DNA of 64,000 nt from Nitrosopumilus sp. (lineage in GTDB: Archaea > Thermoproteota > Nitrososphaeria > Nitrososphaerales > Nitrosopumilaceae). This document shows, piece by piece, positions 10,578 to 28,909 of this stretch (position 1 is the first letter of the stretch; the number at the start of each line of letters is the position of its first letter). The notes under the pieces are model-generated. The model was given only the letters and a program-made list of their open reading frames with translations, made no database searches and was not told the origin of the DNA. The stretch covers positions 672,001 to 736,000 of the forward strand of contig OZ242186.1 of the NCBI GenBank assembly GCA_965205675.1, in the 5' to 3' direction. The translations under genes and the position numbers were made by a program.

Positions 10578-12269
10578 CTAATAATATTGATGCATTTGTC
10601 GTTGTTCTAATCCTTCTTGCTCAAAATGATTATGTGCTTTTCCACCATCATGATGAGCATGAACATGACCATCAATATGACAATGAGTGTTATCAATTTG
10701 ATTTTTCATAAAGACATCGTCAATATTTAAGATCATATTGGTTGCCTCTACGGCTGTATTGAAAATCTGTTGTTTAACAGCTGCTGTTTCAATAATTTTT
10801 GATAAGGTCATATCTGATATTTTTCTAAAACTATAATCTACTCCATACCATTTAATTTTATTGGTAGAATTTGCAAATTTTGCCCGTAATTGGGTTTTTG
10901 TGTCAATCACATTCATTCCAACATTTCGAGCTAATGTCAATGGAATTTCTTCCACTGAATTTGCAAATCGTTCTAACACAATCTGTTCTTTATTTTCAAT
11001 AGTAGAGGCATGAATTCTGATTTTCTCTGCAATGATTCCTTCAATAGAGCCGGCACCAAATACAATAAATGGACTTTCAATAAAATTTTTCAATACTTTA
11101 AATCCGTTTAAAGCATTCCTATGAATCTCATCCAAATATCGCTTTGAATTGGCTCGCAATAACATGGTGACTGATTTTGGATTAACGCCTTCGACAAATA
11201 TCATTGTGTCTCCACCAATAGTTTTTTTATAAATTTTTTTGGCATGTCCTATTTCGTCAGTAGCTATTTTTTGCATATCCTTACAAGTTTTAGCACCTGT
11301 TGCTTTTTCTAACCACCATAAATCATTGTATTTCACTCTTCGAATCGTAATAATTCCTTTTTGTGCAAGAGCTTCTTGAACAAAGTCATTTATTCCCTTT
11401 CTAGATATTACAACGTTAACATTAGCATCTACAATTTTTTTTACAAGTGCTTCTAAATCCGTATTTTCTTGAATTAAAAATTGACTCATTTGTTCTGGAG
11501 AAGTAATTTCAATTTCAGATTCAGATTTTGTTTTCATTGTCTCTAAGGATTCATTAATTAGTAAAATTTTTGGATTGTCTATACTTTTAGGCATTGCAGG
11601 ACTATCAATGGTTTTATCAAGTACCGTTCCTCTAACTAATTGCGTATCTGAAATATTTCCAATTTTTTCTTCAATTTTGATATCATCAATATTGATATAA
11701 TTATTTTTAAAATCTCTAATGCAAGAAACAGACTCGATTATCAAATCTAAAAGTTTTTCTTGTGAATCGTATAAATCAAAAAGCGTTTTACCATTCAAAC
11801 ATGTGTAAAGTAACTGTTTCATTATTTTTTGATCTAAATTATTTGAACTTATTTTTACATCATCTAATACCTCTAAGGCATAATCAAGGCTTCGTTCATA
11901 ACCTTTTATTATTACAGTGACGGGGATTCCAATGTTTAGCAAATCTTTGGCATTTTCAAGTAACGCGCCTATTAAAATAGCCGAAGATATGGTGCCGTCA
12001 CCCACATGAGTATCTACAGTATTTACTGCTTCTATAACTGATTTAGCTGCAGGATGATCAACATCGACTTTTCTTAAAAATGCGCCACCATGTTTTGTTA
12101 AAGTATCTTCATCCAGTATGTCGATGTATATTTTCGACATACCTCTTGGACCTAAAGATGTTTTAACCAGATCTGTAACAAGTTTTCCAGAAATTAAATT
12201 TAACATTTGTGATTCTTGAATACCGATACGAGAAACATCTTCATCAAGTAAGTCTGGATATTTCATCAC
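10578..12269 (-). CDS. Divergent group II chaperonin (thermosome-like) with His-rich C-terminal tail
   Basis: SLGPRG, VGDGTIS, GAGSIE, IPLTLARN motifs; tail HCHIDGHVHAHHDGGKAHNH. Confidence 0.9.
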   Translation of the reverse strand: MMKYPDLLDEDVSRIGIQESQMLNLISGKLVTDLVKTSLGPRGMSKIYIDILDEDTLTKHGGAFLRKVDVDHPAAKSVIEAVNTVDTHVGDGTISSAILIGALLENAKDLLNIGIPVTVIIKGYERSLDYALEVLDDVKISSNNLDQKIMKQLLYTCLNGKTLFDLYDSQEKLLDLIIESVSCIRDFKNNYINIDDIKIEEKIGNISDTQLVRGTVLDKTIDSPAMPKSIDNPKILLINESLETMKTKSESEIEITSPEQMSQFLIQENTDLEALVKKIVDANVNVVISRKGINDFVQEALAQKGIITIRRVKYNDLWWLEKATGAKTCKDMQKIATDEIGHAKKIYKKTIGGDTMIFVEGVNPKSVTMLLRANSKRYLDEIHRNALNGFKVLKNFIESPFIVFGAGSIEGIIAEKIRIHASTIENKEQIVLERFANSVEEIPLTLARNVGMNVIDTKTQLRAKFANSTNKIKWYGVDYSFRKISDMTLSKIIETAAVKQQIFNTAVEATNMILNIDDVFMKNQIDNTHCHIDGHVHAHHDGGKAHNHFEQEGLEQRQMHQYY

Positions 12270-12397
12270 ATTTCTTAGAATTCCTTGTTAAAAAATATTT
12301 TTGAAAAAATTAAATGTAATATAATTATTTTAAATTATCTTTTAATATTCATCAATTTGGATACGTGGTCGGATATGAAAGTGGAGAATGATAACAT

Positions 12398-12694
12398 ATG
12401 ATGCAAGTGCAAAAAAATGAGCTAAAAAGTGCCTACATACTTTTGAAGTGTGATAAAAAAGAACATAGTGATTGCAGAAAAATACGTGATGCATTATTGG
12501 ACAAATACCCCAATGTTAGACGTGCTCAAACTACTGATGCAAAAATTAATGGCGAACAATGGTGTGTTGCAGCAACTGCTTTAGTAAATTCTACAGATGC
12601 AGATAAAATTAAAGAGGATTTGTGGAAGTTACGTACAAATAACAAAAGATTTATTGGAATATCTAATGTTCACTTTGTTGTAGATCAACAATAA
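12398..12694 (+). CDS. Hypothetical protein, possibly Lrp/AsnC ligand-binding-like fold
   Basis: AYILLKC start resembles stand-alone AsnC domains; weak. Confidence 0.5.
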   Translation: MMQVQKNELKSAYILLKCDKKEHSDCRKIRDALLDKYPNVRRAQTTDAKINGEQWCVAATALVNSTDADKIKEDLWKLRTNNKRFIGISNVHFVVDQQ

Positions 12695-12699
12695 ACTTA

Positions 12700-13783
12700 T
12701 ACCTTGGAGCATAATTCTTTGCAATTTCTCAAAACAAATAGCAATACTTTTTGATCAGTAGTTAGAAATAATTTCATGGACATCACAAATGACGAGTTAC
12801 TCCAGGCCTACAAAAAAGAAAAAAATATTCACAAAAAAAAAACAAGATTACATGCAATGTGTATAATTAAGATCAACGAATCCACAATTGCTGAAACTGT
12901 CAACCAAATGTTTTGTACCTACAATTCTGTAAGGAATTAGCTTGATTCATTTGAAAAATACGGACTGGAGGATCTCCCTCGTTCTGGCCGTCCGCCATTA
13001 ATTTCACACAAAAAATTACAAAAAATAGAGCGTACATTTAAGAAAATTTCAGATGGAATGACTCCAAAGAAACTGATACAATTCATATTTTACAGAACAC
13101 GCATTACATATCATATCACTCACGTGCGTCGTTTGATGCATAAATGGAATCTAAAACCAAAGGTTCCACAAAAGGTACATGTGCGAGCAGCATCCAAGGA
13201 TACATGCCGCAAGTGGAAAAACCGCATCATTTCACGCATAGAAAAGGCAAAAAAGAAAGGTTTTACAGTATTTATCCAAGACGAGTCTGTATTTGTAGAC
13301 GATGTACGTCTTGGTAAAAAATACTGGACAGATACACATCAACGAATGATTGTACGTTGGAGAGGATCACATCAAAGATTTTTGGTTTATGGAAATGATG
13401 ATAATCAAAGTTTTTTTAGATCGTATGAAAAATTTAATTCAATTGCATTTATAGATTATTTGGAAGCAGCTCGTAGAAAATTTGGAAAAATATTTGTTAT
13501 CATCGATAGAGCGCCACAACACAAAGCTAATGATGTAAAAAAATATCTGCACAAAAACAAAGATGTCAAACTGGCATATCTTCCAAGAGGTTCTCCACAT
13601 TTGAGTATGATTGAAGAGATTTGGAAACAGTGCAAACATGTTAATGTTGAATCAGAATTTTATGAATCTATTCATGAAATGAGGCATATAGTTATGGAAT
13701 ATTTTAGAACGCACAAATTCAATTTGAATATGTATCAGTATTTTGCAAGAACAATAAATTGAAAAGACTTATGATCTGGGGTA
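12700..13783 (+). mobile_element. IS630-family element, inactivated copy
   Basis: TA-flanked; imperfect IRs TACCTTGGAGCATAA / TTATGATCTGGGGTA; DDE motifs QDES, IDRAPQH, SPHLSMIE; TGG>TAG stop and deletions relative to the copy at 29244. Confidence 0.9.
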
Positions 13784-13850
13784 TAATTGCGCAAGAGGCC
13801 TAATACAAATAATGTTGGTGTGGATTAGACTCAGTCAACAAAAAAATGTT

Positions 13851-14066
13851 TCAGATTTGTTGTAGAAACTCTTCTTTTGAGATTTCTGCTTGCTCCAGTA
13901 TTAACTTTAAGGTGGACTCTCTTATTGGAGAATGTCTTGGAACTGGAACAATATTGCCCTTGCTATTTTGTAAAATTATGTGGCTTCCTCTTTGTCTGTT
14001 TGTATGATACCCAAATTTATTTAATGCCTTTATGACATCACGCCAATTGTGGTTTCTCAGACTCAA
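13851..14066 (-). CDS. hicA: HicA-family toxin
   Basis: RQRGSHIIL...VPVPRH...TLKLILEQA. Confidence 0.9.
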   Translation of the reverse strand: MSLRNHNWRDVIKALNKFGYHTNRQRGSHIILQNSKGNIVPVPRHSPIRESTLKLILEQAEISKEEFLQQI

Positions 14067-14281
14067 TTTGGAATCTCTACAACTATCTTTTGATCTGGTT
14101 TTGTTTTTTCCTCAATGGATTCTAGAACTAATGAGATTACTTCTTTCATGTTTACTTCTAGTTGCTCCATTGTGTCTCCTTCACTGATTGCTGCAGGCAA
14201 TTCAAGGCATCGTCCGGTGTATCCACCTTCTGATGATTTGATTACCTGTATAGTGAATTTTCTTGTATTCATGCTTTTCAT
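14063..14281 (-). CDS. hicB: HicB-family antitoxin (short form)
   Basis: GGYTGRCLELPAAISEGDTMEQL; 4-bp overlap with hicA. Confidence 0.9.
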   Translation of the reverse strand: MKSMNTRKFTIQVIKSSEGGYTGRCLELPAAISEGDTMEQLEVNMKEVISLVLESIEEKTKPDQKIVVEIPN

Positions 14282-14532
14282 TTTCTTGTGTTGTTTCCTT
14301 TCTAAAAAAGATTAGGAATCAAGAATGCGGTTTAATTCTTGCCTTATCTTTTTGAGTGTCTTTTTGTGCTTTCTTTGACGTATTCTGTCTTGTGCTATTC
14401 CTAATTCAACTCGAGCATCTGAAATTATCTTAGATGGATGTCTCAGTTCAATCATCATATGACACGAGGCATTGCAGTGTCTAGTGTTTTTTGTTGCAAT
14501 GCCATGAATTCCATGAACTAAAAATTGATGTA

Positions 14533-14658
14533 TACTAAATAACAAAAATTTGTCACCCTATTCTGAACTCGATTTACGTACATTGTAGATTCAAGTTTAA
14601 ATTTCAGGAATTAGTATAATTTGGAAGATTTTGGTTCATGAATATTTGTTAGACAGTA
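14533..14658. mobile_element. 126-bp IS630-type MITE, copy 1
   Basis: TA-flanked, imperfect TIRs TACT..TAACAAA; near-identical inverted copy at 60897-61022. Confidence 0.85.
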
Positions 14659-15325
14659 TAGTTCAATGCTAAAAGCAGATGGTCCAGTATGGCACAAATC
14701 AGACATTGAACAAAACCGTCTGCCAATATCAGGAATTGACACTGTTGTTCAATGGGGATCTCTAAATCAAAGGGTTGGATATTTGGATACAAACTGCACA
14801 TGAGTTGCAGTACTGGCAAACTGGTTGTTCCTTTATCTGCTAATGTCTCAACTGCAAATGTTTCTGATGGTAAAATGTATTATACAATAATTGAACCGCT
14901 TTCAGGACTGGTTGAGAATATTTTATGTGATCCCGCATATGATGATAAATCATTATATCAGTTTAGCGATGAGAGACATTTGAGATTGATTTGTCCTATC
15001 AAAATATATCCATCAACGCCACCAGAGCGAATCAAACTTGCAGATTTTTATAATTCTGTACAAGGTCAAGAGTTATACTCACAAAGAAAAGTTTCAATTG
15101 AACCCCTCTTTGAGTATCTCAAAGATATTTTTAACATCAGGGTGATGCCAGTAAGAGGATTATACAATGTCAAATCATTTGTGTTGGTTTGTGTTCTTGT
15201 GTATCAGTTGACAGTGTATTACAACTGTATAATTGGGGCAGAGAATCCCAGATTTGTAAAGAGAATGCTTTACTGTTAGAAAATCCCTGAGAATTATTTT
15301 TGTAAATAATTATGCCCAAGTCTCA
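14659..15325 (+). mobile_element. Truncated DDE transposase (IS5/IS982-like), pseudogene
   Basis: GWIFGYKLH, DPAYD, RKVSIEPLF motifs; 5' part missing next to the MITE; frameshift near 14755. Confidence 0.8.
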
Positions 15326-15486
15326 ACTATTTTACTTTTGCTTTTTACTGCATGTTGGGTCTTGATACTTTACACGAAGATCCATAGTTGAGGTCTCATT
15401 ATTTCTGTCTGGTTACTGAAAAGGTAGAGATTAGGCGTAAAAGTCATAAACCTATGAAATAAAAAAAGCGAAACTCTGATATTAAA

Positions 15487-17085
15487 TTATTTTTTCATTG
15501 CATTGTGACTTGTGAGATCATCTCCTGATGTATCTAAAGTATTTGAATCATAACCATTTGGCATGGAATCATCAGCATTTCCAAAGTGTTTCAAATCTTC
15601 ACCTGATATGACATCCTCTTCTGGTGGAACATAATCTCGTACGTCATGTCGCGTTTTTCCAGGATGTGTGTTTTGTGTTGCATATGCAACAATTACAAAT
15701 AATATTGTTGCAATTACTGGAGGAATCATTGTATCTAATCCTGCCCACTCTTCAGGCATGGTAAAGAATAGAATCAATCTAATGGCAGAACCTACAATTA
15801 TTGCCGTTATAGCTGCTGGCATGTTTGCTTTTTTCCAGAATAATCCAAATGTAAGAGGTGCAAATGCGCCTGCAAAAACGATGTCAAAAGCCAAAATTAG
15901 ATAAATTCCAGGAGCTGGGATAAAGTAACCAATTGCAGTTCCAATCACTATCATAGGAATAATGGCAAGTCGTGTTACTTTGAGTAATTTGCTATCACTC
16001 CAATTAGATCTGCCCATCCAACGCCGTCGAATTATTCTTTGCATTAGATTTCTAGATATTACACTTGAAATAGCTAGTAATCCTCCACTAGCTGTAGACA
16101 TTGATGCGCCAATTACACCCATTAGAATTGCAGCCCCAATTGCAAATGGCATAAACTCAGTAGCTAGCACCGGTAATGCTAAATCAGGCATTATGTCAGC
16201 AGGTAAATAATAAAATGCTACAATTCCTAACATGCTGGTTGGGATGACTGTGAACATTGTTAATGCGCCCCCCATCAATGCCCCTCTTTGTGCAGTTTTG
16301 GGGTTCTTTGCTGCAAATACTCTTTCCATAAAGTCAAGTGCAACAATATCTCCCAATCCTAATGCAACAATAGCTCCCCAATTTATCAGTGCTCCATTTG
16401 CAATATCAAACAGCCCTGAAAGATCCATGAATTCAGGAGGCGCATTATTATAAATTACATCCCATGGGGTATCTGAGAATCCGCCAAAGAAGAAAAGGAA
16501 TGCTGCCCAAAATGCACCAATTGCAAGATACACCTGAAATAGATTTGTGTATGCGGATGCAAATAATCCTCCTGCAACTGTATAGATTACTACAACTAGA
16601 GCTGAAATTGCTATTCCGTAAAAATAATTTATTCCAAATACGACTTCTAAAATAAATCCACTAGCTGCTAAATTACCTGCAACAAGAATAAGGAAACTGA
16701 TTATCATTAATATTCCTGATAATCCTTCAGCTCCATTTCCAAATCTTCTAAAATAAAAATCAGGTAATGTAATCATAGACATTCTGTTTAGAGGCTTTGC
16801 ATAAAATGCAGAAACAATAAGCAGACAAGATCCCAAACCAATTGGAATTACTGCACCGGCCCAAAATCCAAATTCAAACGTGAGTGCAATATTTCCTAAT
16901 GTTGAATTTCCATCTACTGCTTGTGCTGCAAGCATTGTTCCTACCATAAAAAGCGGCAAACTTTTTCCAGCAACAATTAATCTTTTCCCACTATTTTTTA
17001 CTAATCTGCCAGCAAACACTCCCACTGCAAGTGTAATTACAATGAATATTGCAACTGCAATGCCAAAACCCTCCAATTCAACCAA
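15487..17085 (-). CDS. Sodium:solute symporter (SSS/SLC5, choline-transporter-like)
   Basis: About 13 TM helices; ITLPDFYFRRFG, YTVAGGL, GASMSTAS, FGLFWKKAN. Confidence 0.9.
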   Translation of the reverse strand: MVELEGFGIAVAIFIVITLAVGVFAGRLVKNSGKRLIVAGKSLPLFMVGTMLAAQAVDGNSTLGNIALTFEFGFWAGAVIPIGLGSCLLIVSAFYAKPLNRMSMITLPDFYFRRFGNGAEGLSGILMIISFLILVAGNLAASGFILEVVFGINYFYGIAISALVVVIYTVAGGLFASAYTNLFQVYLAIGAFWAAFLFFFGGFSDTPWDVIYNNAPPEFMDLSGLFDIANGALINWGAIVALGLGDIVALDFMERVFAAKNPKTAQRGALMGGALTMFTVIPTSMLGIVAFYYLPADIMPDLALPVLATEFMPFAIGAAILMGVIGASMSTASGGLLAISSVISRNLMQRIIRRRWMGRSNWSDSKLLKVTRLAIIPMIVIGTAIGYFIPAPGIYLILAFDIVFAGAFAPLTFGLFWKKANMPAAITAIIVGSAIRLILFFTMPEEWAGLDTMIPPVIATILFVIVAYATQNTHPGKTRHDVRDYVPPEEDVISGEDLKHFGNADDSMPNGYDSNTLDTSGDDLTSHNAMKK

Positions 17086-17112
17086 AACAGAAATTTTTAT
17101 AACAAAAAATTA

Positions 17113-17143
17113 TTTAAGTATTAAAAATTTCAAGTAAAGTACG
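17113..17143 (-). promoter_or_regulatory. Shared promoter/operator element upstream of the symporter
   Basis: Minus strand CGTACTTTACTTGAAATTTTTAATACTTAAA including a TATA-like TTTAATA; 27/31 identical to 23098-23128. Confidence 0.7.
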
Positions 17144-17475
17144 TTTTATGAATATAGTTTCATATGTATGATATCATTTGACATAAAATTTATAATTATT
17201 GTAGTAATTTATTGTAAAAAATAATAATTAAAGATAAAAACTACTATTGATTCAATAATGGAATATAATAAAACACACAATTTTTTTTTGATTTAATTCG
17301 TATAATACATTTATTTTAAAATTTTTAAAAAAAACTATCATTTTAAAAAAATAATTTGTAAAAAGAATATCTCATTGCATCTAATTATAAAATAATAACA
17401 TTCAACAGAAATTTTTAAAAAATTAGATTTCGAAAAAATATAAATTTAATTAGTTAACTGGTACGATTATTCCCT

Positions 17476-17637
17476 ATGGATAAACAATATGCGTTGGCAG
17501 TAATTTTAATTATATTGGGAGTTGGTTTAAGTCAATCTGGAACAACTAATGCTTTTTACAGTGGCCTTGGAATTGGAATTATAGGATTAGGAATATTTTG
17601 GGTAATAATTCGGTTAATTAAAGAATTAAAAAGATAG
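17476..17637 (+). CDS. Small two-TM membrane protein (53 aa)
   Basis: MDKQYALAVILIILGVGL...GLGIGIIGLGIFWVIIRLIKELKR*. Confidence 0.6.
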   Translation: MDKQYALAVILIILGVGLSQSGTTNAFYSGLGIGIIGLGIFWVIIRLIKELKR

Positions 17638-17699
17638 ATCGTTTTATTTTTAAAAATTAACATAATAAAATAATATAAGTATCACCTAGAATAAAAATT

Positions 17700-18218
17700 A
17701 TGCCTGCAAAAGGATATTCTACAATAGGAATGAAACCTGCAGTAATATCAGAATTACAAGACGTTACAGATAGAAATTATCTAGGAATGTTTCTACCTAG
17801 CACTCTAATCATCATGATGAATGAAATTAAAGCCGAACGATACTCGGTGCATTCCCACAAATTAAGATTAGATTTGACAGGGCGATACAATTCAATTACA
17901 ATAAGATCAGATGTAAAAGAATGGTTGCAGGATAATTATAAAATACTGAATCAAGAATACTTGGACAAATATAGAATTACTTGTTTTACAAAATTTGTTA
18001 GCTATTTTCTAGTTAATGTAATTGAATCAAAAAATGATTCTCAAAACAATACCTTAAATCTAAAAGAGGCAGATTTTAAATTTCTTCATAAAGAATACCA
18101 AAAACAAAAAAAGGCTTTAAAAAATGAAATGAAATTAAATTTTGAGCAATTTGTAGATAATTACATTAGTGAATTATTTGATAGAATAAAAATGGCAAAA
18201 AAAGCTTTAACTGTCTAA
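17700..18218 (+). CDS. Hypothetical protein
   Basis: 172-aa clean ORF. Confidence 0.7.
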   Translation: MPAKGYSTIGMKPAVISELQDVTDRNYLGMFLPSTLIIMMNEIKAERYSVHSHKLRLDLTGRYNSITIRSDVKEWLQDNYKILNQEYLDKYRITCFTKFVSYFLVNVIESKNDSQNNTLNLKEADFKFLHKEYQKQKKALKNEMKLNFEQFVDNYISELFDRIKMAKKALTV

Positions 18219-18228
18219 AAATAAAAAA

Positions 18229-18480
18229 TCAAAGAGGAGTCATAGTATCAATCAATCTTGCATTAACTATATGCCCATCTTTCTCCTGAATCTCAAGATC
18301 TACGGTGTATTTCAATGCATTTAACATGAAATTAACTTGTACATCCCAACCTCTTCTAGTTCCTTTTTCAGGAATTGCAAATGTTTCATTTATTTTGAAA
18401 TCATTTACATCACCATAAAGAGCAGTTATTGCTTTTTGAGATGCATTGTGAATTTCTTCAACAGTACTTACTTGTTGCAT
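18229..18480 (-). CDS. Hypothetical protein
   Basis: 83-aa clean ORF. Confidence 0.65.
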   Translation of the reverse strand: MQQVSTVEEIHNASQKAITALYGDVNDFKINETFAIPEKGTRRGWDVQVNFMLNALKYTVDLEIQEKDGHIVNARLIDTMTPL

Positions 18481-19342
18481 AAAAGTAAATAAAAAAACAA
18501 ATATAAAAATTTTTATTATTTTTTTAAAATTTATTGTATCCTAAAATTAGTTTGTCTTTTACTCTGTATGGTATTTTTCTCCTAGCTGCTTACAACAAAT
18601 GCGATTTTCTTCTTTGCCATCTTTTGCATGAATGCTTTAGCTAGCGTTTTAAGATGATTATTCTCATCAAATAGCATGTGTGATTTTGTGTAATTGTGCC
18701 AATCAGTTAATTCGTTTATCACATCAAACCATTTTTGCTTTCTCTGAATCTCACTGTAAAATTGTCTTAGCTTACTGTTTGTCTAAAGATGACTCAGCAT
18801 AGTAGCTAGAATGTGCTTAATTTTTAATGTTGTTCATTCTCGCTCAAACTCTGATGAATTTTTTTGTATTGTGATTTTTTTGCATAAAACTGAAAACTAT
18901 GATTAGTTGGAACTGATTCAGATTTATCGTGTTTTGTAATTGTTTTTTTGAGTATTATAATTGCATTATTTCAAGTTGCATTTGTAAGCACTTTGTAATT
19001 GATGATGAATTGTAATACTCTATTCTGATAACAAATTAGCCAATTATCTGAGAATTTACAATCAGTATGTTGCATAAAATTGGAATATGTCTTCTCATAT
19101 CTTCATGAAATCAACAACCGTTGTATTTCACATTCCATTTTTTTAAATACTCTGATTATCTGCAATACTTTGGTTGGATCTAGTTTTTGCACGACTAGAT
19201 GATTCCTGTCTCTCTGCCCTATGCGTATCTTGATTTTAGTCTAGATGCCATGAGTTAATTTCAGAACAATGGACTGGTGTATTTATTAATTAAAATATAA
19301 GAATCTAAGAAAGTATAATTTGTTAAAAATATACAGATATGC

Positions 19343-19828
19343 ATGCTGGAAATTCACGCACCAGACGGAAATATCTTTCTAGACCAAGAATTTGACAAAC
19401 TAAAAGATGAAAATTTTGAGAAACTAAAAATCTCACGAACTGATTTGGAAAAAAGAATTCTGAGAAGAAAGACAGATCGTGGAACAGATATTGGTTTGAA
19501 TTTAGACCCTGGAATAAAACTTTGCAATGGAGATATCATAAAAAACAACAATATGAAAATTATAATAGAGCAATTACCTGAAAAAGTAATTTTAATAAAA
19601 CTAAAAACCAAAAGTATTGTAGATGTGATGGTACTTTTAGGTCATATTATTGGAAACAGGCATAGGCCAATATCAATTCAGGAAGATGAGATAATGTTTC
19701 CAATTCAAACAGATTCAGAACAAGAAATATTTACAAAACTGTTTCATAATATTATAGATCATATTGAGATAAAAGTAGATGAGAGAATATTTCTTCCACA
19801 TTTGGGTGCTAACATACATGAACATTGA
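19343..19828 (+). CDS. ureE: Urease accessory protein UreE
   Basis: KRILRRKTDRGTDIG, LGHIIGNRHRP, C-terminal HEH. Confidence 0.92.
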   Translation: MLEIHAPDGNIFLDQEFDKLKDENFEKLKISRTDLEKRILRRKTDRGTDIGLNLDPGIKLCNGDIIKNNNMKIIIEQLPEKVILIKLKTKSIVDVMVLLGHIIGNRHRPISIQEDEIMFPIQTDSEQEIFTKLFHNIIDHIEIKVDERIFLPHLGANIHEH

Positions 19829-20519
19829 TGATGTGGAACAAGAGCTTGGAGCCATGCAGCTATCTGACTCTTTTTTTCCTATCGGTATTTTTACAACATC
19901 AAACGGAGTAGAGCTTCTTTTTACAGAAAAAAAGATTCAAGGAGTGTCTGACTTGATAAATTTGATTAGAGTTAACATTATTCAACAGATTGCTCCTACA
20001 GACTGCGTAATACTTGCAAATGCTTTTGAGGATGCCAAGAGCGGTGACCTTGATAAAGTAATTGAAATAGATAGTATTGGGTTTGCCACAAAATCTATAA
20101 AAGAGATACGCGATGCATCTGTAAGATCAGGCATTCAGTTAATCCGATGTGTATCAGAGTTTGTGCAGGATAATGAAATTCTAAACCAATACAAAAATAA
20201 ATTATCCGAAAAAAAAACACATGGTATATTTCCTGTTGCATTTGCCATCTGCTGTAATGCATTAAATATTAAAAAAGAAAAAAGCATGATGATGATGCTA
20301 TATGGTTTTACTGTGGGTATGGTCAGTGCTGCATTAAGACTGGGATTGATACAGCACTTTGAGGCTCAAAAAATTATTCATAGTACAAAACCTGTTATCA
20401 GTCAGAGTATCAAAGAGTGTTCAAACAAGTCCATTTTAGAGATATGGCAGTTTACCCCTCAAATGGACATAACTCAAATGTCTCATGAAAAAATGGATTC
20501 TAAAATGTTTATTACATGA
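19818..20519 (+). CDS. ureF: Urease accessory protein UreF
   Basis: QLSDSFFPIG..SNGVE start, AALRLG, C-terminal HEKMDSKMFIT. Confidence 0.92.
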   Translation: MNIDDVEQELGAMQLSDSFFPIGIFTTSNGVELLFTEKKIQGVSDLINLIRVNIIQQIAPTDCVILANAFEDAKSGDLDKVIEIDSIGFATKSIKEIRDASVRSGIQLIRCVSEFVQDNEILNQYKNKLSEKKTHGIFPVAFAICCNALNIKKEKSMMMMLYGFTVGMVSAALRLGLIQHFEAQKIIHSTKPVISQSIKECSNKSILEIWQFTPQMDITQMSHEKMDSKMFIT

Positions 20520-20536
20520 ATTTTGGTTTTTTCATT

Positions 20537-20578
20537 ATGAATCATATGCCAAAAATTGGAAATGTTGCAATTGGATGA
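20537..20578 (+). pseudogene. ureG: Probable truncated ureG N-terminus
   Basis: MNHMPKIG directly after ureF, breaking off where the GGPVGSGKT P-loop is expected. Confidence 0.45.
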
Positions 20579-20834
20579 TTCATTAGAATCATATCCTCTG
20601 GAAAAATATTTGTAGAAATTGATGAGGCATTTTGCGAACAATGTCTCTAGTTGTCTTTATATTTTTTATTGGATGATTATTTCTTTGCTTGTTTTATGAT
20701 AAAGTTTCAAATGGAATAATCTACTAGTCTTTACATCAATTATACTTTTGATATAATCTACAAAAATAAGCTAATTTTTTCATATTCTTTTAAAATATTT
20801 GATTTCACTTTTAGAACTGTTTCCTATCATAAAA

Positions 20835-21056
20835 TTTCATTTTACAACCACAAGATTGAAATCTTAGATTCATGCACTACGGAATTTACAACACTGCCAA
20901 GTAATTTCCATCTCATGCCGCCAAGTCCTTTTGAACCAATAATGATCATTGTTACACATGTAATTTTTACGTTATATGGTATGGCAAGTGAAGTTGCAGT
21001 ATCTGGTCTTTTTCTGATGTACCTGAAATATCTAATGCAACCAAAATATTTTTCAT
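20835..21056 (-). pseudogene. Universal stress protein pseudogene
   Basis: Fragments NILVALD..., MIIIGSKGLGG...LLGSVVNSVVHESKI with frameshifts and a deletion. Confidence 0.7.
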
Positions 21057-21116
21057 TTTTATCTTCTAGTTAATTAAATTGTTTCTATAATTCAGGTAAA
21101 GTACGAATTTATTTTT

Positions 21117-21875
21117 TTATAAAAATGTAATTAATTTAGCATTTAATAAAACTGTAAATATAATATTTAATCCGATAATAAAACTAATACCTGATACAAT
21201 ATATTTCAAATATTTTGTAGTTTGTTTGATTTTAGATACTAGTGCAAATGGTACGCCAATTATTCCACTAATGGTTATCATTCCAAAAGTACTTCCGATA
21301 CCAAATAAAATTAAAAAATAAAGCATTGTTTCAAAATTAATCATTGTGGAAGCAGTTAATGCTACAAAACTACCGCTTCCTGCAATGCCGTGAATACAAC
21401 CTATCCAGAATGTTTTGTGACTATGATCTTGACTATGATCTTCTTCATGATTGTGAAAATGTGTGTGTGAAATTCCATTTGAATGATTATGTGGATGAAT
21501 ATGCTTTTGTTTGAAAATCTTTTTGTTAGAAACTGTTAAAATCCCTAAAACAATTAACATGAATCCCACAATTAATTCTGCACCTAGAAAAAAATCACTA
21601 TGTATATTTAATGACAAACTTGCAATTACTAATCCAACTAATATGATACTTGACGTATGTCCAATTCCCCATACTGCCCCTCTCAATGAAGAAATCACAC
21701 TCAATTGTTTTAATGCTAATTTTTTTGAATTATTTCTATTCTTAATTAATAGTTGGGTTGAAACTGCACTGATATGGTCCGGTTCAAAGGCATGAATTAA
21801 TCCAATCATTAAACCTGCCATAATTACCAAAAAAGGATTGTTTAGTTGTAGTACTTCAATCAAGTTATCAATCAT
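21117..21875 (-). CDS. Nickel/cobalt permease (UreH/HoxN/NiCoT-like)
   Basis: HAFEPDH, WGIGHT, His-rich loop HIHPHNH...HTHFHNH, GCIHGIAGSG. Confidence 0.88.
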   Translation of the reverse strand: MIDNLIEVLQLNNPFLVIMAGLMIGLIHAFEPDHISAVSTQLLIKNRNNSKKLALKQLSVISSLRGAVWGIGHTSSIILVGLVIASLSLNIHSDFFLGAELIVGFMLIVLGILTVSNKKIFKQKHIHPHNHSNGISHTHFHNHEEDHSQDHSHKTFWIGCIHGIAGSGSFVALTASTMINFETMLYFLILFGIGSTFGMITISGIIGVPFALVSKIKQTTKYLKYIVSGISFIIGLNIIFTVLLNAKLITFL

Positions 21876-21958
21876 TTGTTTAACCTTTATCCAAACAATA
21901 GATTTTCATAAAATAATGATATCTCACCATGTTCTTTATCTGCAAACATTTTTTCCCA

Positions 21959-23074
21959 TCAATCTCTTTTTGGAATCTTAGCTTGTGGGTTTCCAAAATT
22001 ATATGTATTTCCAGTACCCTTGTAGTCTTTTGGTCTTACAGGGTCTCCTCCATCTAGCCCTCTTTTTGTTAATGACAATCCTGCTAGCAATTCAACTACT
22101 AATCTTTGACCTAATCCTGAGGTAATGCCTCCATTGTAGGAGCTATTATCACTAACATCATAAGCAGGAGCAATCTCTACTAAATCCATTGCAAATCTAT
22201 CTGGATCAAATGATTTGGATAATTGACGTATCATTCTAATTCCTTCTCTTGATGTAAGTCCGTTTGGTTCTGGTTCTCCAGTTCCAGGTGCATAAGAGGG
22301 ATCAAAAGAATCAATATCCCAACTAAGATAAACTGCATCTGTTCCATCATTGGCTCTATCAGCTATTTCTTTTGCAATATAATCAATTCCTAATTCTTCT
22401 ACATCCAACATTGTAAACCACTGGAAATCTTGATCAGACATCCATTTGTACAAATCCCGTCCTGGCCAATATCCTCTTGGACCGACTAGGGAATAATTTT
22501 TCCCCTTTAGACATCCCATCTCCATTATTCTTCTAATATGTGCCCCGTGATCATACTTGAATCCAGTTAATCCCTGTGGCGCACAATCAGCATGAGTATC
22601 AAAATGAATCATGCCTATATTTTTAAATTTCTTCTGAAAAGCTCTGACATTTGCATATGTTATAGAGTGATCTCCTCCAAGCATTACTGGAATTCCATCT
22701 GCCTCTAAAACTTCTTTGACCTTTAGGGTCATACTTTTGTGAGATCCAATTACATCTCCTGGTGAGACAACTACGTCTCCATAATCCACTGTTCGAAAAG
22801 TACCAAATGGATCAGCACCAGTTTCAATATTAAATCTCTCAAAAGGGGGAGATGGAATGGTAGAAGCCGCTCTAATTGCTCGTGGACCATATCTTGCTCC
22901 GGGGCGGATAGTGGTACCAAAATCAAATGGCTCTCCAATAATTGCAACATCTGGTTTTGCTTTTAGTAATTCTTTATGGTCTTTAATCCATGGCAAATGT
23001 AAAAATGTATTAATTCCTACAAATGGCGCAACATCTGGACCTTGAAAATCCTCACCATAAAATTCTGCACCCAT
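21959..23074 (-). CDS. Ureohydrolase (agmatinase/guanidinobutyrase-like, arginase family)
   Basis: RPGARYGPRAIR, GGDHS, HFDTHAD, SWDIDSFDP...PGTG metal-binding motifs. Confidence 0.93.
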   Translation of the reverse strand: MGAEFYGEDFQGPDVAPFVGINTFLHLPWIKDHKELLKAKPDVAIIGEPFDFGTTIRPGARYGPRAIRAASTIPSPPFERFNIETGADPFGTFRTVDYGDVVVSPGDVIGSHKSMTLKVKEVLEADGIPVMLGGDHSITYANVRAFQKKFKNIGMIHFDTHADCAPQGLTGFKYDHGAHIRRIMEMGCLKGKNYSLVGPRGYWPGRDLYKWMSDQDFQWFTMLDVEELGIDYIAKEIADRANDGTDAVYLSWDIDSFDPSYAPGTGEPEPNGLTSREGIRMIRQLSKSFDPDRFAMDLVEIAPAYDVSDNSSYNGGITSGLGQRLVVELLAGLSLTKRGLDGGDPVRPKDYKGTGNTYNFGNPQAKIPKRD

Positions 23075-23097
23075 AACAATCAGTTTTAATTACTAAT

Positions 23098-23128
23098 TTT
23101 AATTATTAAATATTTCAAGTAATATACG
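23098..23128 (-). promoter_or_regulatory. Shared promoter/operator element upstream of the ureohydrolase
   Basis: Minus strand CGTATATTACTTGAAATATTTAATAATTAAA; TATA-like box 30-36 nt before the ATG. Confidence 0.7.
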
Positions 23129-23232
23129 AATATTTTCTTTTAAAATATGCTCATAGTCACTCTATTTAAAATAAAATTATAGTAATATACAACTCAATTA
23201 AAGTATAAAAATTATATTGCCTGTAATGTTAT

Positions 23233-24471
23233 ATGTTATTAAAAAAATCAAAAAACGCTTGGTATTTTTTAAATCAGGGATTAATTGCCGTTCATTATAA
23301 TCAATTTAAAAAAGCAATTTCTTATTTTGATAAAGCTATTTTATTGGAACCTAAAAATATGGTTTTACAACTTCATAAAGGTCTTACCTTACATAAAATT
23401 AAAAATTTTCGAGATGCAATAGTTTGCTATGATGATATACTCTGCAATGATCCAAAAAATTTAGATGCTTTGTATAACAAGGGAATTGCATTTGAAGCTA
23501 TGGGGCAACCCCATGATGCAATTGATTGTTTTAAAAAATCCTTTGCGATTGACTCTACATTTTCTAATTCATTAATTTCATTAGGAATATGTTTTAGTAA
23601 ACTGGGTGATCATGAAAAAGCACTTGAACTGACAGACGATGCTCTTTCTAATAATCCAAATAATGCCGAAGCCCTTTATAATAAAAGCTTGATTTTGGGT
23701 AGATTGCACCGTAATTCCGAGTCATTGATATTTTTTAATAAGGCAATTGATGAGGACGCTTATCAATCTAATATCCTATTTGAAAAAGGACAGAAACTAA
23801 CAAAAGAAAAAAAACATGAAGAAGCAATAAGATACTATACTAGATCTTTGGAAGTAGATAAAAAAAATACAAAAGCATTGGTTGCTAAAGGGTGGATCCT
23901 TGATTTTGCAGGATTTTCTAACAAAGATATTTTTGCTTTTTATGATGAGGCCATTAAAATTGATCCAAAGTGTACTGATGCATTATTTAATAAAGGAATA
24001 GTGCTAAATAAAACTGGATTACACAAAAAAGCTATAGTTTGTTTTGATAAAATTTTAGAATATGATCCTGAAAATATTAGAGCTCTTTATAGTAAAGGCG
24101 TGGCCTACATGTCATTGAAAAATATTGGCAAGGCAAAATCTTATTGTGAATTTGCACTAAATATTGAACCCGATAATGTTGTTGCCTTGTGTACCATGGT
24201 TTGGTGTCTGGAACATTCCAAGAAATATAACGAAGCGCTTGTCTACTGTGATAGGGCACTTAAAATTGAGCCAAACTATGTTTATGCCATAAGTTACAAA
24301 GCTAAATTATTTCTATTATTAAAAAACTATAAAGAATCACTTAGTTGGTATGATAAAGCATTAAAAATTGAACCTAATAACCAACCAGCGATTTTTCATA
24401 GATATAAAGTTGTAGCAGAATTAGATAAAAGAAACAAAGAATCTTTTTTTAAAAAAATTATGAAATTATAA
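23233..24471 (+). CDS. Tetratricopeptide repeat protein
   Basis: About 11 TPR units (ALYNKG etc.). Confidence 0.9.
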   Translation: MLLKKSKNAWYFLNQGLIAVHYNQFKKAISYFDKAILLEPKNMVLQLHKGLTLHKIKNFRDAIVCYDDILCNDPKNLDALYNKGIAFEAMGQPHDAIDCFKKSFAIDSTFSNSLISLGICFSKLGDHEKALELTDDALSNNPNNAEALYNKSLILGRLHRNSESLIFFNKAIDEDAYQSNILFEKGQKLTKEKKHEEAIRYYTRSLEVDKKNTKALVAKGWILDFAGFSNKDIFAFYDEAIKIDPKCTDALFNKGIVLNKTGLHKKAIVCFDKILEYDPENIRALYSKGVAYMSLKNIGKAKSYCEFALNIEPDNVVALCTMVWCLEHSKKYNEALVYCDRALKIEPNYVYAISYKAKLFLLLKNYKESLSWYDKALKIEPNNQPAIFHRYKVVAELDKRNKESFFKKIMKL

Positions 24472-24473
24472 TC

Positions 24474-24908
24474 CAGTACTTGGGAAAGTAATCCAATTTA
24501 GATCATAAACTAACCATTATTTCATCAGTTAAACAACAAATTTGGATAGAACAATCTTGAAGGAGATGTGCTTCTCCATCAAATGTGAATCATAGCAATC
24601 TTGATTTTGCACACATTAGAAATTCAACAATTCAAGCATTTGCAAATATTGCTAAAATAATGTGCACAACGTTGTTGTTTTCATACCGAAAAACAACGCA
24701 CTATACAATTCAGAGGACATTCCTCATTTTATCATGGAATGTTGCCTTGGTGACTGTTATTCTGAATCAACTACAAAGAAATTGAAGATAAGGACTGAAT
24801 GTGTTATTCCATCAGGCTCTTGGATTAGAAAGCAGATCGTAAAAATATACCTCCTAACATAAGTTCGTCAACCATCTTCTCATTGCATATACTTGAGAAT
24901 GTCTAAAT
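24474..24908 (+). mobile_element. Degenerate left end of an ISH3-like element
   Basis: CAGTACTTGGGAAAGTAATCCAATTTAGATCA resembles the left end at 24910; no intact ORF. Confidence 0.6.
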
Positions 24909-24909
24909 T

Positions 24910-26228
24910 CAGTAGATGGGAAAGTAACTCAATTTAGATCAAAAACTATCAATCACTCAATCAATCTATTCAGATAGAAAAAGCTTGATGGAAGTATGTC
25001 ACTCCATCAAATATGCATTGTACTTCATTTGATACCATGACACACCAAGGCGTGATACTATCTAAAGCATTTGAGATTATCACTAAAATAATGTACAATA
25101 TCTTGTTGTTTCCATGCTCTAGTAAAAATAACTCACGGTTCCACAATGCAGATGCACATAATTCTGTCATGTCATTGTGTTTGGGAAATTCATATTCTGA
25201 ATCTGGATTAAAGAGACTGGCGATGGAATCAGATAATGCTTCTCCAACTGGTTTCATGGTTGAGAAAAATCATATCAAAAATATCACAAAAAACAATGCA
25301 AATTCAATTACATCGTTCACTGGATAGTACAGTATCAAAATTACAAGAACTGGGAGTATTGGAACAACCAGTTACTGTAGCAATTGACAAACATCTAATC
25401 CCAAGATATGACAAATTGCCAAACCATTCTTTAATAAAATCAAAATCTAAAAACAGTACTACTCATTTTGAGAGTTACTGCACCATGCAGTGCGTTGAAA
25501 AAAGAATCAGGGCTCAATTAGGTTGTTATCCTTTGTATGACAACAAATCAAATGCCGATTTTGTGCGTAAATTACTCTCTGATGGCATCAATAATGGAAT
25601 CAAGATTAAACTATTGCTAGTGGATAGGGAGTTTTTCACAGCTGGAACAATTTCAGAAATAAAACAAAAGAATCTGAAATTTCTAATGCCTGCATAAAAG
25701 AATTCTCGAATCAAAGATGCAATTGTACAATACGTTAATGGAGATAGAAAGTCAATCTCGCCATACACAATAAAATCATCATCAGGACATGTAGAATCAT
25801 TTACTCTAGTTATTCTGCCAAACAAAAATGCAAGAAAAAAATCAGATATTATTGATCAGTATGTTGTGTTTGCAACAAATATTTCACCAAAAGAAATATC
25901 ATATAACATACAAAACATTCCAACTGACTACAAGAAACGTTGGGGATTGAAACAGGCTATGCATGTGTGGGAAGGTTCAGACCAAAAACCACCAGTTCAA
26001 ACCAATCCATAAGATTGTTGTATTTTTACTATTCATTGATTTTGTACAATGCATGGATAATTGCTAATTTGATTATCTCAGAAGAAACTAATGTAAAAAA
26101 TCACAAACCAATAATATCAATTGAAATTCTCAAATATTTCTTTGTAAAGATAATTATTCATTATTTTAGAAATAACAAAAATAATTATTTTCTAGAATGT
26201 GTAACTTGAGTTACTTTCCCATCTACTG
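24910..26228 (+). mobile_element. ISH3-like (IS4 superfamily) element, transposase pseudogene
   Basis: Perfect TIRs CAGTAGATGGGAAAGTAACTCAA / TTGAGTTACTTTCCCATCTACTG; VAIDKH, LVDREF, YKKRWGIETGY motifs; frameshift and internal TAA at 25695. Confidence 0.88.
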
Positions 26229-26253
26229 ACACTACAGATCTTTTCACTGATTA

Positions 26254-27002
26254 ATTTCAATCCTATAATAGTTCGATTCAAACCAAAATCTCAGATGGTA
26301 ATGTTGCAGTGATCGCACTATTTCAATCCTATAATAATTCGATTCAAACATTAATAATTTCTGATATTCATTTGAATCATACAAAATTTCAATCCTATAA
26401 TAGTTCGATTCAAACTTGTGCCGAAACTACTAAACTTCTTATCAATTAAGAATTTCAATCCTATAATAGTTCGATTCAAACATGCAAATTGCGTTAACAC
26501 TCGTAATTATCGGATCATTTCAATCCTATAATAGTTCGATTCAAACGAAATAATCATGCGAAAAATCATAATGTCTGATGAATTTCAATCCTATAATAGT
26601 TCGATTCAAACTGGCAGTTCCTCATCATCCACTATTTCACCGTTTATTTCAATCCTATAATAGTTCGATTCAAACATATATAAAAGAACAACACAAGGTA
26701 CTGGTGATGAATTTCAATCCTATAATAGTTCGATTCAAACTCGCTGTAGTTGCTGTCTTACGTCAAATGCAGTTAATATTTCAATCCTATAATAGTTCGA
26801 TTCAAACTGGGCAGATTTAGTCAAGGCGGTAAATTCTATGAATTTCAATCCTATAATAGTTCGATTCAAACTTTCTGCAGTAGATGTATGATTTTTTTGG
26901 CACATAATTTCAATCCTATAATAGTTCGATTCAAACGCAATAGGGTATGATCATGGCACAATATCAAGAACAATTTCAATCCTATAATAGTTCGATTCAA
27001 AC
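26254..27002 (-). CRISPR. CRISPR array: 12 repeats of 30 bp, 11 spacers of 34-37 bp
   Basis: Repeat ATTTCAATCCTATAATAGTTCGATTCAAAC (minus strand ends ATTGAAAT, type I-B-like); one variant repeat at 26320; leader probably 27003-27157. Confidence 0.98.
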
Positions 27003-27157
27003 CCGCCAAATTTATGCCTAAATCAAGATATCAAACGTTTGTATTTTTATCTACCTATGATCGTGCTGATTCCTTATAAGGTCAGCAAAGACATCATTGC
27101 ATCTGTTATCATTTTAGAATAGTTTAAGATAAAAACCGTTCTGTTTGAGTAACAATA

Positions 27158-27649
27158 TTGAATGACACAACTGAATTGACGGGCACTCAGTTTAACTACT
27201 ATTTTGTGTGTAAAAGAAAACTATGGCTTCACTCCCGCAATATTTCCTTTGAATCAAGCTCAGAGATTGTAAAACTTGGGAGCCTCATACATAAGGACTC
27301 TTACAAAAGAAAGAAAAAAGAGATACGCATAGGCAGCATATCTATTGACTATATTGACAAGGGAAAGATACACGAAGTAAAAAAATCAGACAAGATGCAT
27401 GATGCACACACATATCAATTACTGTATTATATTCACTATCTGAGAAAGCTCGGCATTGATACAACTGGAGTACTGGACTATCCAAAACTCAAAAAGACAG
27501 TAAAGGTAACACTCACAAAACAAAAGCAGGATTTTATACATGAAACAATAAACCATGCATTGGAAATAATCTCTGCAAAAAAACCACTTGCTGCAGAATA
27601 CAAGCCAATATGTGACAAATGCGCATATGCAGAATACTGTTGGTCATGA
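27158..27649 (+). CDS. cas4: CRISPR-associated Cas4
   Basis: YYFVCKRKLW, HEVKKS, QLLYY, CDKCAYAEYC. Confidence 0.95.
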   Translation: MNDTTELTGTQFNYYFVCKRKLWLHSRNISFESSSEIVKLGSLIHKDSYKRKKKEIRIGSISIDYIDKGKIHEVKKSDKMHDAHTYQLLYYIHYLRKLGIDTTGVLDYPKLKKTVKVTLTKQKQDFIHETINHALEIISAKKPLAAEYKPICDKCAYAEYCWS

Positions 27650-28632: not shown

Positions 28633-28895
28633 TGTATGCCATATTGGTGTATGATATTTCCATAGATCGCATAGATGCTGTGCGAGTCACGACAAAGCAA
28701 TATCTCAACTGGATTCAAAACTCGGTGTTTGAAGGAGAGATAACAATGTCTGGACTTGCAGAACTAAAATCCAAAATATTTAGACTGATTGATGTGTCTA
28801 AAGATTCGGTGCTTATCTTTACTGTGAACAATCCAAAATGGATAGAGAAGACAATCATTGGAATCGATAAGAACGACACAGGCAACATCATCTAA
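28632..28895 (+). CDS. cas2: CRISPR-associated Cas2
   Basis: ILVYDI, WIQNSVFEGEIT. Confidence 0.97.
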   Translation: MYAILVYDISIDRIDAVRVTTKQYLNWIQNSVFEGEITMSGLAELKSKIFRLIDVSKDSVLIFTVNNPKWIEKTIIGIDKNDTGNII

Positions 28896-28909
28896 ATTTT
28901 GATTTGCCT

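Follow-up and report, generated by a model that had tools for sequence, protein, structure and literature searches.

The question raised by the locus described here is what an ammonia-oxidizing archaeon (AOA) does with a ureohydrolase gene placed beside an importer gene. The DNA analyzed (the window, 64,000 nucleotides) comprises positions 672001-736000 of contig OZ242186.1 in a Nitrosopumilus sp. assembly (GenBank GCA_965205675.1); the genome (G000) is archaeal, 2.01 Mb in size, and 99.9% complete. An initial annotation, made from the letters of the window, had proposed that an SSS-family symporter and a 371-residue ureohydrolase import an organic guanidino compound and convert it to urea or ammonia. 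In its wide form (import of some guanidino compound, which is turned into urea for urease), this proposal is upheld with high confidence. The substrates that had been listed (agmatine, guanidinobutyrate, glycocyamine, and taurocyamine) were considered less likely than guanidine in light of the context of the transporters, and a guanidinase route using an enzyme other than the guanidinase GdmH, with guanidine as the likeliest substrate, is rated at slightly better than an even chance.

Composition of the module and its dependence on urease

Co-occurrence was scored in 60 genomes of the same genus and in 40 genomes of other genera, of which only the eight with a hydrolase match were followed up; related genomes are not independent, and hence no p-value was calculated. 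That the symporter and the hydrolase belong together, as the initial annotation presumed, was borne out: both genes, along with the His/Cys tail of a third chaperonin subunit, were found in the same 11 of 60 same-genus genomes (co-occurrence 11/11, always with urease). ureC was detected in 26 of the 60, among them all 11 module genomes, and the module was present in 0 of the 34 ureC-negative ones. Outside the genus, four of the eight genomes carried the present hydrolase clade (71–78% identity), all four with SSS and ureC; the remaining four held other ureohydrolase clades (33–37%) and had neither SSS nor ureC.

Neighboring genes were clustered around the best 80 of 253 hydrolase relatives from species-representative genomes, 49 of these loci being full-length; open reading frames (ORFs) were called simply, and some genes in high-GC loci were missed. 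Near the hydrolase in the full-length loci were a TPR gene (47, in a loose cluster), the His-tailed chaperonin and an 83-residue protein gene (46 each), SSS, a 172-residue protein gene, and a putative metal permease (42 each), a UreA-like gene (36), ureC and ureE (19 each), and ureF (18). No amine or carbon catabolism genes were found among the conserved neighbors. The true unit consists of the SSS symporter, a ureohydrolase from a clade of its own, and a third chaperonin with a His/Cys tail; the module is a real, conserved, urease-dependent import-and-hydrolysis unit.

In the family Nitrosopumilaceae, a GdmH query gave scores like that of G000 in 69 of 201 genomes (34–39% identity), their assignment to this clade being by score and length and not verified for each. 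The same query found no canonical GdmH in the 201 genomes, which leaves the slot free. Contigs about 90% like SSS and the hydrolase were present in marine metatranscriptomes (three runs from three studies); this is weak evidence, in that the contigs are from relatives, the runs were chosen by the hydrolase region, and DNA carry-over is possible.

The genes named in the initial annotation (SSS, ureE, ureF, permease, and the 371-residue ureohydrolase) were all present and open where it had placed them. Absent from it were the His/Cys-tailed chaperonin, the TPR gene, two small conserved genes, a universal stress protein (USP) pseudogene, and a repeated-element remnant. The assembly at 15421-22097 is supported by three overlapping contigs from a second-sample sequencing run of the same organism, which cover this interval. 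In window coordinates, the features are:

10578..12269, minus strand: third group II chaperonin subunit with a His/Cys-rich C-terminal tail (PF00118; 40% identical to the two housekeeping subunits)
15487..17085, minus strand: SSS-family symporter (PF00474, E 5.8e-29)
17476..17637, plus strand: 53-residue hydrophobic small protein, found beside SSS in some relatives
17700..18218, plus strand: 172-residue conserved protein, divergent from SSS
18229..18480, minus strand: 83-residue conserved module protein, assigned to no known family
18531..19102, minus strand: decayed copy of a repeated element (about 10 copies at 65–74% elsewhere in the genome; blastx to repeated ORFs)
19343..19828, plus strand: ureE (PF02814), the sole intact copy found in the genome
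19779..20519, plus strand: ureF (PF01730), the genome's sole intact copy, its true start probably near 19815
20537..20578, plus strand: ureG stub (about 8 ureG-like codons at 20537-20560, then unrelated sequence and a stop at 20578)
20840..21056, minus strand: frameshifted USP remnant (blastx to USP genes at the same place in relatives, E 1e-12)
21117..21875, minus strand: 252-residue His-loop membrane protein, putative Ni/Co permease (NF007454, E 1.9e-4)
21959..23074, minus strand: ureohydrolase, 371 residues (PF00491, E 2.8e-79)
23233..24471, plus strand: TPR-repeat protein (Pfam TPR), divergent from the hydrolase

The 53-residue protein gene was clustered in 18 of 80 loci at a 60-residue ORF cut-off and was therefore under-counted. 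The 172-residue protein is possibly a ribbon-helix-helix (RHH) regulator, its closest named Atlas clusters being RHH/Arc/ParG at 0.83–0.86, under the reliable range; PepSY/NTF2-like Atlas matches of the 83-residue protein (0.82–0.83) are a lead only. G000 abounds in repeated elements; the one here is probably an insertion sequence, and its site corresponds to the position of ureA-B-C in some relatives (gene maps L065 and L088).

Two further gene associations were observed at related loci. The UreA (urease gamma)-like gene, of 125–135 residues (PF00547, weak), directly follows the hydrolase in the 36 loci counted above (for example, L050:9116-9511) and is missing from the window at 21875-21959; a 122-residue ORF after ureD (G000:1486603-1486971) has a very weak UreA-like match (E 0.018) and is perhaps a member that has diverged. 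The haloarchaeal hydrolase gene has a PhoU/AbrB-type regulator gene as its constant neighbor upstream (19 loci; e.g., L119:13782-14798, L120, L121).

As had been stated initially, the window contains no ureABC; the genome search located ureA, ureB, ureC, ureG, and ureD, with two DUR3-type transporters, at 1.484-1.494 Mb, 790 kb from the window locus. The ureE and ureF copies of this main cluster are broken by frameshifts and stops (as read from the assembly) and share 67% DNA identity with the window copies, with 44 gap positions in 868; the UreF model PF01730 found only the window copy in G000. The suspected ureG stub is real, though just about eight codons long, and its DNA aligns with the main-cluster ureF-ureG junction before breaking off. 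Relatives such as L065 and L088 carry a whole urease operon after the permease. Judging from these alignments, the ureE-ureF-stub segment is the leftover of a broken urease operon that complements the main cluster. Given the whole operon in L065/L088 and the fact that only the window copies are intact, ureE and ureF serve urease and are no evidence about the hydrolase. The earlier suggestion that UreE donates nickel to the hydrolase was accordingly abandoned, and UreE and UreF were rejected as its helpers: they are urease-operon remains, the only intact copies, and are near the hydrolase in just 19 and 18 of 49 loci, respectively. The urease maturation set is thus split, ureE/ureF being intact only at 19343-20578 (their main-cluster copies, at G000:C1:1488600-1489760, are pseudogenes) and ureG/ureD only in the main cluster. 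One DUR3-type transporter (G000:C1:1484295-1486622, 775 residues) has, from its translation, an apparent C-terminal USP-like domain.

The ureohydrolase, its transporters, and the likely substrate

The enzyme belongs to the ureohydrolase (arginase) superfamily (PF00491, 266.9 bits against a cut-off of 22), and its segments GGDH (133-136), D159-x-H161-x-D163, D253-x-D255, and GPRGYWP (198-204) are intact, as initially reported. Residue conservation was tallied over 221 unique sequences of the clade. The six metal ligands (H136, D159, H161, D163, D253, and D255) and the catalytic H176 are kept in 221/221, and the catalytic E300 in 219, the other two being gaps. Thr55, present in 220/221, matches the specificity Thr of GdmH (T97 in Synechocystis, T105 in N. 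inopinata; an offset of 2 between paper and chain was worked out in this analysis); Thr occurs at this site in GpuA also and is not unique to GdmH. Position 160 is Thr in 128 and Cys in 93 of 221, compared to Cys in MefH-alpha and Arg in GdmH, and position 267 is Glu, as opposed to Thr in SpeB, GbuA, GpuA, and proclavaminate amidinohydrolase (PAH). Two clade-specific inserts (residues 75-80 and 312-316) are nearly invariant. The loop equivalent to that of GbuA Arg72 has a four-residue insert and aligns ambiguously; E79 is found in 189/221, position 80 is His in 134 and Arg in 86 of 221 (the window hydrolase itself has Arg80), and no Arg in this loop is invariant across the clade.

Sequence identities to the window hydrolase fall in steps: 94–96% for Nitrosopumilus sp. 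proteins, 70–96% for AOA as a whole, 51–56% for a few bacteria, and 47–51% for haloarchaea, followed by a gap to 43%. All trees were quick trees; in those of the hydrolase, homologs from Rubrobacter and Nonomuraea stood in for the characterized GdmH enzymes. The clade received Shimodaira-Hasegawa-like support (SH-aLRT) of 99–100 in two such trees, separate from the GdmH proxies and from the housekeeping agmatinase. The genome's own housekeeping agmatinase (823 kb) is 28% identical and the hydrolase is on a separate long branch, so the notion of a vertically inherited agmatinase, on which the initial annotation could have foundered, failed. The agmatinase models are missed as well (TIGR01230, 152.3 against a cut-off of 174.3 bits; NF002564, 203.3 against 302). 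A sister relation between this clade and GdmH was tested and was not rejected (p-AU 0.351). The clade leans to a group with a GLRGYWP segment (support 94 in one quick tree, no resolution in the other), one of whose enzymes adjoins aminotransferase and aminobutyraldehyde dehydrogenase genes in an apparent agmatine/putrescine catabolic cluster.

The predicted model of the hydrolase (pLDDT 92.8) showed the alpha/beta fold of the superfamily and superimposed on the Nitrospira inopinata guanidinase 9FEK with a Z-score of 43.3 and a root-mean-square deviation of 1.9 over 315 aligned residues. A guanidinase was the best PDB match both by sequence and by Foldseek. MefH-alpha and the guanidinases were tied by Z (43.0–43.5), with other ureohydrolases 1–2 units lower; neither Foldseek nor the Z-scores of the model separated the substrates. 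Sequence and fold together set the enzyme apart as a new specificity class but leave its substrate unnamed. The enzyme is not a GdmH, but it probably works like one. In one record (VHBM01; L114 and L117), two copies of the hydrolase module were observed on different contigs, and G586 also gave two matches.

Known systems resemble the module in different parts. The Synechocystis GdmH (PDB 7ESR/7OI1) works with HypA/HypB and an ABC importer, whereas the N. inopinata guanidinase has an APC permease and feeds urease (available sections of PMC11410670). The module shares with the GdmH route the logic of importer, ureohydrolase, and urease, the six metal ligands, the catalytic His and Glu, and the specificity Thr, and in Rubrobacter and Nonomuraea an SSS from this subfamily accompanies GdmH. 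It differs in that the hydrolase is about 32% identical, lies in a separate clade, has Glu for Trp, and bears the two inserts; the module has an SSS importer, a His/Cys-tailed chaperonin, and the permease, but no HypA and no riboswitch. Comammox bacteria also are without these nickel chaperones, according to the same sections of PMC11410670. MefH/MfmAB and DmgH (8RYI, 8SNF) are likewise ureohydrolases of small guanidines with a nickel-transporter gene downstream, and they share Cys at position 160 with part of the clade; they are, however, tandem two-gene heteromers that have no catalytic His and need HypAB, whereas the window enzyme is a single gene, 27–28% identical, with all ligands and H176 kept. 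With SpeB (E. coli 7LOL and the housekeeping AOA copy) the enzyme has in common the fold, the metal ligands, and the annotation usually given, but it falls below the model cut-offs, carries Glu267, and has a patchy distribution tied to transporter and urease. GbuA, GpuA, PAH, and human GDAH are 30–34% identical and have a similar N-terminal arm; in contrast to them, the clade has, as far as the loop can be aligned, no invariant acid-loop Arg, and Glu replaces Thr at 267.

The transporters are the better guide to the substrate. A homolog search with the window SSS listed matches that were all of at least 75% identity and uninformative on gene context. Its best solved relatives are the choline transporters SLC5A7 (E 4e-24); it is 37–39% identical to SSS proteins of Rubrobacter, Acaryochloris, and Nonomuraea and 23–24% to the genome's two DUR3-type proteins, and it is not in the DUR3 sequence clade. 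The window SSS and the riboswitch-linked SSS formed one clade (SH-aLRT 99, in a tree for which the tool warned of long branches meeting at the base) with members in haloarchaea, Rubrobacteria, other actinomycetes, and cyanobacteria. In a plasmid collection, the subfamily was found in eight records, three bacterial and five haloarchaeal. All three bacterial records have a guanidine-I riboswitch or an adjacent GdmH-type guanidinase: Rubrobacter indicoceani has, in order, a guanidine-I riboswitch, a GdmH-clade hydrolase (E 1.9e-160 to 9FEK, Trp present), SSS, formamidase, and ureABCF; in Acaryochloris marina a guanidine-I riboswitch lies 92 bases before the SSS start (79.6 bits, cut-off 63); and Nonomuraea has a GdmH-type gene divergent from SSS, with no riboswitch. 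The five haloarchaeal plasmids, whose SSS is 57% identical to that of Rubrobacter, all carry a hydrolase of the present (Glu) clade, adjacency having been read directly for three; in Natronorubrum SSS is a fragment, and a urease operon lies next to the hydrolase. No true GdmH was found on the haloarchaeal plasmids. Among 401 genomes of one bacterial phylum, distant homologs (30–33%) were present in six, with no Rfam match within about 4 kb, and the Rubrobacter SSS had no match among viral contigs.

A second transporter family also points to guanidine. On bacterial contig L126 a Glu-clade hydrolase is followed by an SSS of this subfamily, and on L127 by an SsuA/TauA-type ABC importer and then ureG, ureD and ureF, and ureE. 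On both contigs (L126:1282-5288, L127:7962-17055) the importer is accompanied after the hydrolase by a possible outer-membrane protein with no NCBIfam match, and L127 adds a sigma-54-type activator. The L127 binding protein has its best plasmid relatives in Cupriavidus, Paenibacillus, and Enterococcus (41–49%), where they head operons with UAAP1/2-type (urea-carboxylase-associated) genes and, where annotated, urea carboxylase; two of the operons are under guanidine-I riboswitches, and the genes of the Paenibacillus operon were named from a reading of its ORFs. We take UAAP1/2 to be carboxyguanidine deiminase. The layout of the guanidine carboxylase pathway is given in the available part of PMC12186494, and importers of the SsuA/TauA annotation class take up guanidine in Synechocystis (bioRxiv 2025.03.14.643060, in part). 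Two unrelated guanidine-tied transporter families thus each pair with the Glu clade, which places its hydrolase in the slot held elsewhere by GdmH or the carboxylase. Guanidine is the likeliest substrate because of this riboswitch and operon context, and SSS is proposed, by analogy, as a guanidine importer. As a separate observation, a formamidase gene stands beside both the Rubrobacter GdmH operon (L205:10559-11803) and a Haloarcula Glu-clade locus (L119:5881-7152), suggesting shared nitrogen-scavenging islands.

In the proposed route, SSS would import guanidinium, and the ureohydrolase would split guanidine into urea and ammonia, in keeping with the predicted fold and the conserved metal ligands. 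Glu267, near-invariant in the clade, would shut the channel, a part played by Trp313 in GdmH, and would hold the third amino group. Urease, encoded elsewhere and matured with the window ureE/ureF, would turn urea into two more ammonia molecules (the genes for this are present). All three nitrogens would thereby become available for ammonia oxidation and assimilation, at no cost in ATP and leaving no carbon residue for disposal. The route is supported by the strict dependence on urease (11/11 in the genus, 4/4 in other families, 0/34 in urease-negative genomes); by conserved neighbors free of amine or carbon catabolism genes, unlike those of the sister-clade enzyme; and by Thr55 and the guanidinase as best PDB match.

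A number of observations weigh against this route. The hydrolase is outside the GdmH clade in the quick trees, and Glu267 (218/221) occupies the site of the specificity Trp of GdmH (W305/W313). The E-values for GdmH (2e-49) and for the guanidinobutyrase 3NIO (8e-49) are equally good, the structural Z-scores are close (43.5–41.5 for MefH, GdmH, PAH, GpuA, and SpeB), and catabolic agmatinases may be among the members of the sister group. On its sister branch, the window SSS is only 37–39% identical to the riboswitch-linked SSS; the riboswitch evidence amounts to two SSS records and two ABC records, and the transporter case is guilt by association on few records. In a fourth genus, Chondrocystis, the match to the L127 binding protein (38%) stands in no guanidine context. 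Scans for guanidine riboswitches gave nothing in the window region or at L119-L121, L125-L127, and L207, nor at any Glu-clade locus covered; RF00442 had no match in the whole of G000, and window positions 12200-24600 gave no Rfam match up to E 1. Finally, a PotD-like ABC transporter lies beside the hydrolase at three haloarchaeal loci (L128, L135, and L148), two of them with a second ureohydrolase; these neighbors may denote a two-step route that releases guanidine, or a polyamine-like substrate.

The same route might instead serve methylguanidine, dimethylguanidine, or a similar small substituted guanidine, yielding urea and an excreted amine. At the channel position Glu takes up less room than Trp, and the three-residue stretch there helps to set the specificity of DmgH/MefH (available sections of PMC11399263); the Cys that part of the clade has at position 160 and the tie of MefH-alpha with GdmH as best structural match point the same way, and methylguanidine genes also occur in guanidine riboswitch operons (PMC12508155, in part). 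Set against this, MefH/DmgH are heteromers without the catalytic His that is invariant here, and the transporters point to guanidine-pathway operons; a substituted guanidine was judged unlikely. Quite unlikely, too, is the published annotation, an extra agmatinase with SSS as a low-affinity urea (or agmatine) transporter that tunes urea supply. G000 already encodes a separate agmatinase and two DUR3 transporters, both agmatinase cut-offs are missed, the Thr at position 267 of SpeB/GbuA/GpuA/PAH is Glu, and SSS follows the hydrolase (11/60) and not urease (26/60), even though SSS clustered with an "agmatinase (SpeB)" is conserved and expressed in NS-delta soil AOA (PMC11131427, in part), the GLRGYWP sister clade includes the enzyme of the apparent catabolic cluster, and PotD-like transporters occur at the three haloarchaeal loci.

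An amidine or other non-guanidine C-N substrate, for instance a formamidine or formimino compound giving formamide, would fit the formamidase near the hydrolase in Haloarcula marismortui (three haloarchaeal contigs share the arrangement in part) and the membership of formiminoglutamases in the ureohydrolase family. It is very unlikely: formamidase also neighbors the true GdmH operon in Rubrobacter and is hence a general mark of nitrogen scavenging, it is not a conserved neighbor in AOA, and the strict co-occurrence with urease points to urea. Hydrolysis of a guanidino acid (guanidinobutyrate, guanidinopropionate, guanidinoacetate, or taurocyamine) is given hardly any credence. Arg72 of GbuA caps the site and binds the acid group (PMC9772407, in part), and the matching loop here, as far as it can be aligned, has no invariant Arg; 3NIO and 3NIP do rank second and fourth by sequence, and the L127 binding protein is a member of the sulfonate/taurine superfamily, but the cyanobacterial guanidine-binding protein Sll1080 is annotated as sulfonate-binding as well (bioRxiv 2025.03.14.643060, in part).

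Chaperonin, permease, and metal supply

The His/Cys tail of the third chaperonin is strongly conserved across AOA loci, and this chaperonin tracks the hydrolase, not urease; it is proposed to be a folding and metal-loading helper of the hydrolase. The His-loop membrane protein has no Pfam match and a weak match to the NCBIfam Ni/Co transporter model NF007454; presumably UreH/SodT-like, it is a putative Ni/Co permease that could act in either direction. It was found in 24 of the 60 same-genus genomes, namely the 11 with the module, nine other urease-positive ones, and four urease-negative ones. In G024, G060, and G009, one permease copy accompanies the hydrolase, and a second copy, intact or broken, accompanies urease. 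It showed no pairwise likeness to HupE of the metformin operon.

In three genomes of one AOA family that have no His-tailed chaperonin, the hydrolase itself ends in a 59-residue tail with 10–11 His, and eight of nine chaperonin matches in these genomes were read, all ending in Gly-Met-rich tails. Within this family, His-tailed hydrolases without the His-tailed chaperonin are seen at L034, L035, L036, L185, L189, and L197. The complementary distribution of tails on chaperonin and hydrolase is a hint; together, the permease, the chaperonin tail, and the His-tailed hydrolases hint at metal delivery to the hydrolase. Common descent of the two kinds of tail was also considered and is unsupported: a profile of 62 chaperonin tails scored the hydrolases no better than unrelated His-rich permease loops. 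In a shuffle test, no more than 5 of 500 shuffles equaled or exceeded nine of 12 tails; for a tenth tail, which scored low, 1 of 500 did so.

The hydrolases of guanidine, metformin, and dimethylguanidine use nickel (available sections of PMC11410670 and PMC11399263). With moderate confidence, nickel is taken to be the metal here also; it would probably be supplied through the permease and the chaperonin's His/Cys tail in place of HypA/HypB. Of the nickel supply envisaged initially, then, the UreE part falls away, and the permease and the His-tailed chaperonin are the better candidates. Confidence goes no higher because the permease is missing from haloarchaeal loci, most of which also lack the His-tailed chaperonin, and the chaperonin next to the Haloarcula hydrolase is only 25% identical. 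Counting likewise against the proposed explanation, some AOA loci (L193 and L199) have neither the hydrolase tail nor the chaperonin, and no HypA scored above cut-off in G000. HypB was not searched for as such; the ureG model found ureG alone in G000.

Genomic setting, published record, and significance

Elsewhere in the window, a CRISPR-like repeat region (about 26200-37500) contains cas4-, cas1-, and cas2-like ORFs (27158-28895, named from translations), is interrupted by IS630-like transposase genes, and holds further large ORFs at 30550-37486. The 16S and 23S rRNA genes are at 40002-44619 (Rfam).

Published work was consulted as far as its open sections allowed. In those of Palatinszky et al. 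2024 (PMC11410670), a screen of ammonia oxidizers reports no guanidine-degradation genes in any AOA, the tests described cover five ammonia-oxidizing bacteria and N. inopinata and no AOA, and urea and cyanate are the only confirmed alternative ammonia sources listed. The corresponding text of PMC12625717 reports no guanidine-degradation genes from blastp on floodplain nitrifier genomes. That of PMC11131427 reads an SSS-"agmatinase" pair in NS-delta soil AOA as urea transport plus agmatinase, and that of PMC10753782 describes two to three speB copies in AOA, ascribed to polyamine synthesis; the sections available of PMC4084955, PMC6790972, PMC12998224, and PMC12686405 contain nothing on this module. 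The gene pair has thus probably been noticed in print already, as the pair of PMC11131427 may be this one. The open full-text literature, subscription papers being outside its scope, yielded no paper that assigns guanidine use to AOA or haloarchaea or that describes this clade.

The complete picture, a second kind of guanidinase with Glu for Trp, an undescribed SSS importer, and nickel delivery by a His/Cys-tailed chaperonin, shared by roughly one in three Nitrosopumilaceae species, numerous soil AOA, haloarchaea, and a small number of bacteria, is offered tentatively, at somewhat less than an even chance. It names a candidate family of guanidine importers (an SSS subfamily undescribed in the literature searched) and a possible chaperonin-based route of metal loading. 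If it is true, a substrate of the most abundant nitrifiers has been overlooked, because homology screens based on GdmH miss it; AOA could grow on guanidine, and archaeal nitrification in the oceans, in fresh waters, and in soils would have one more substrate.

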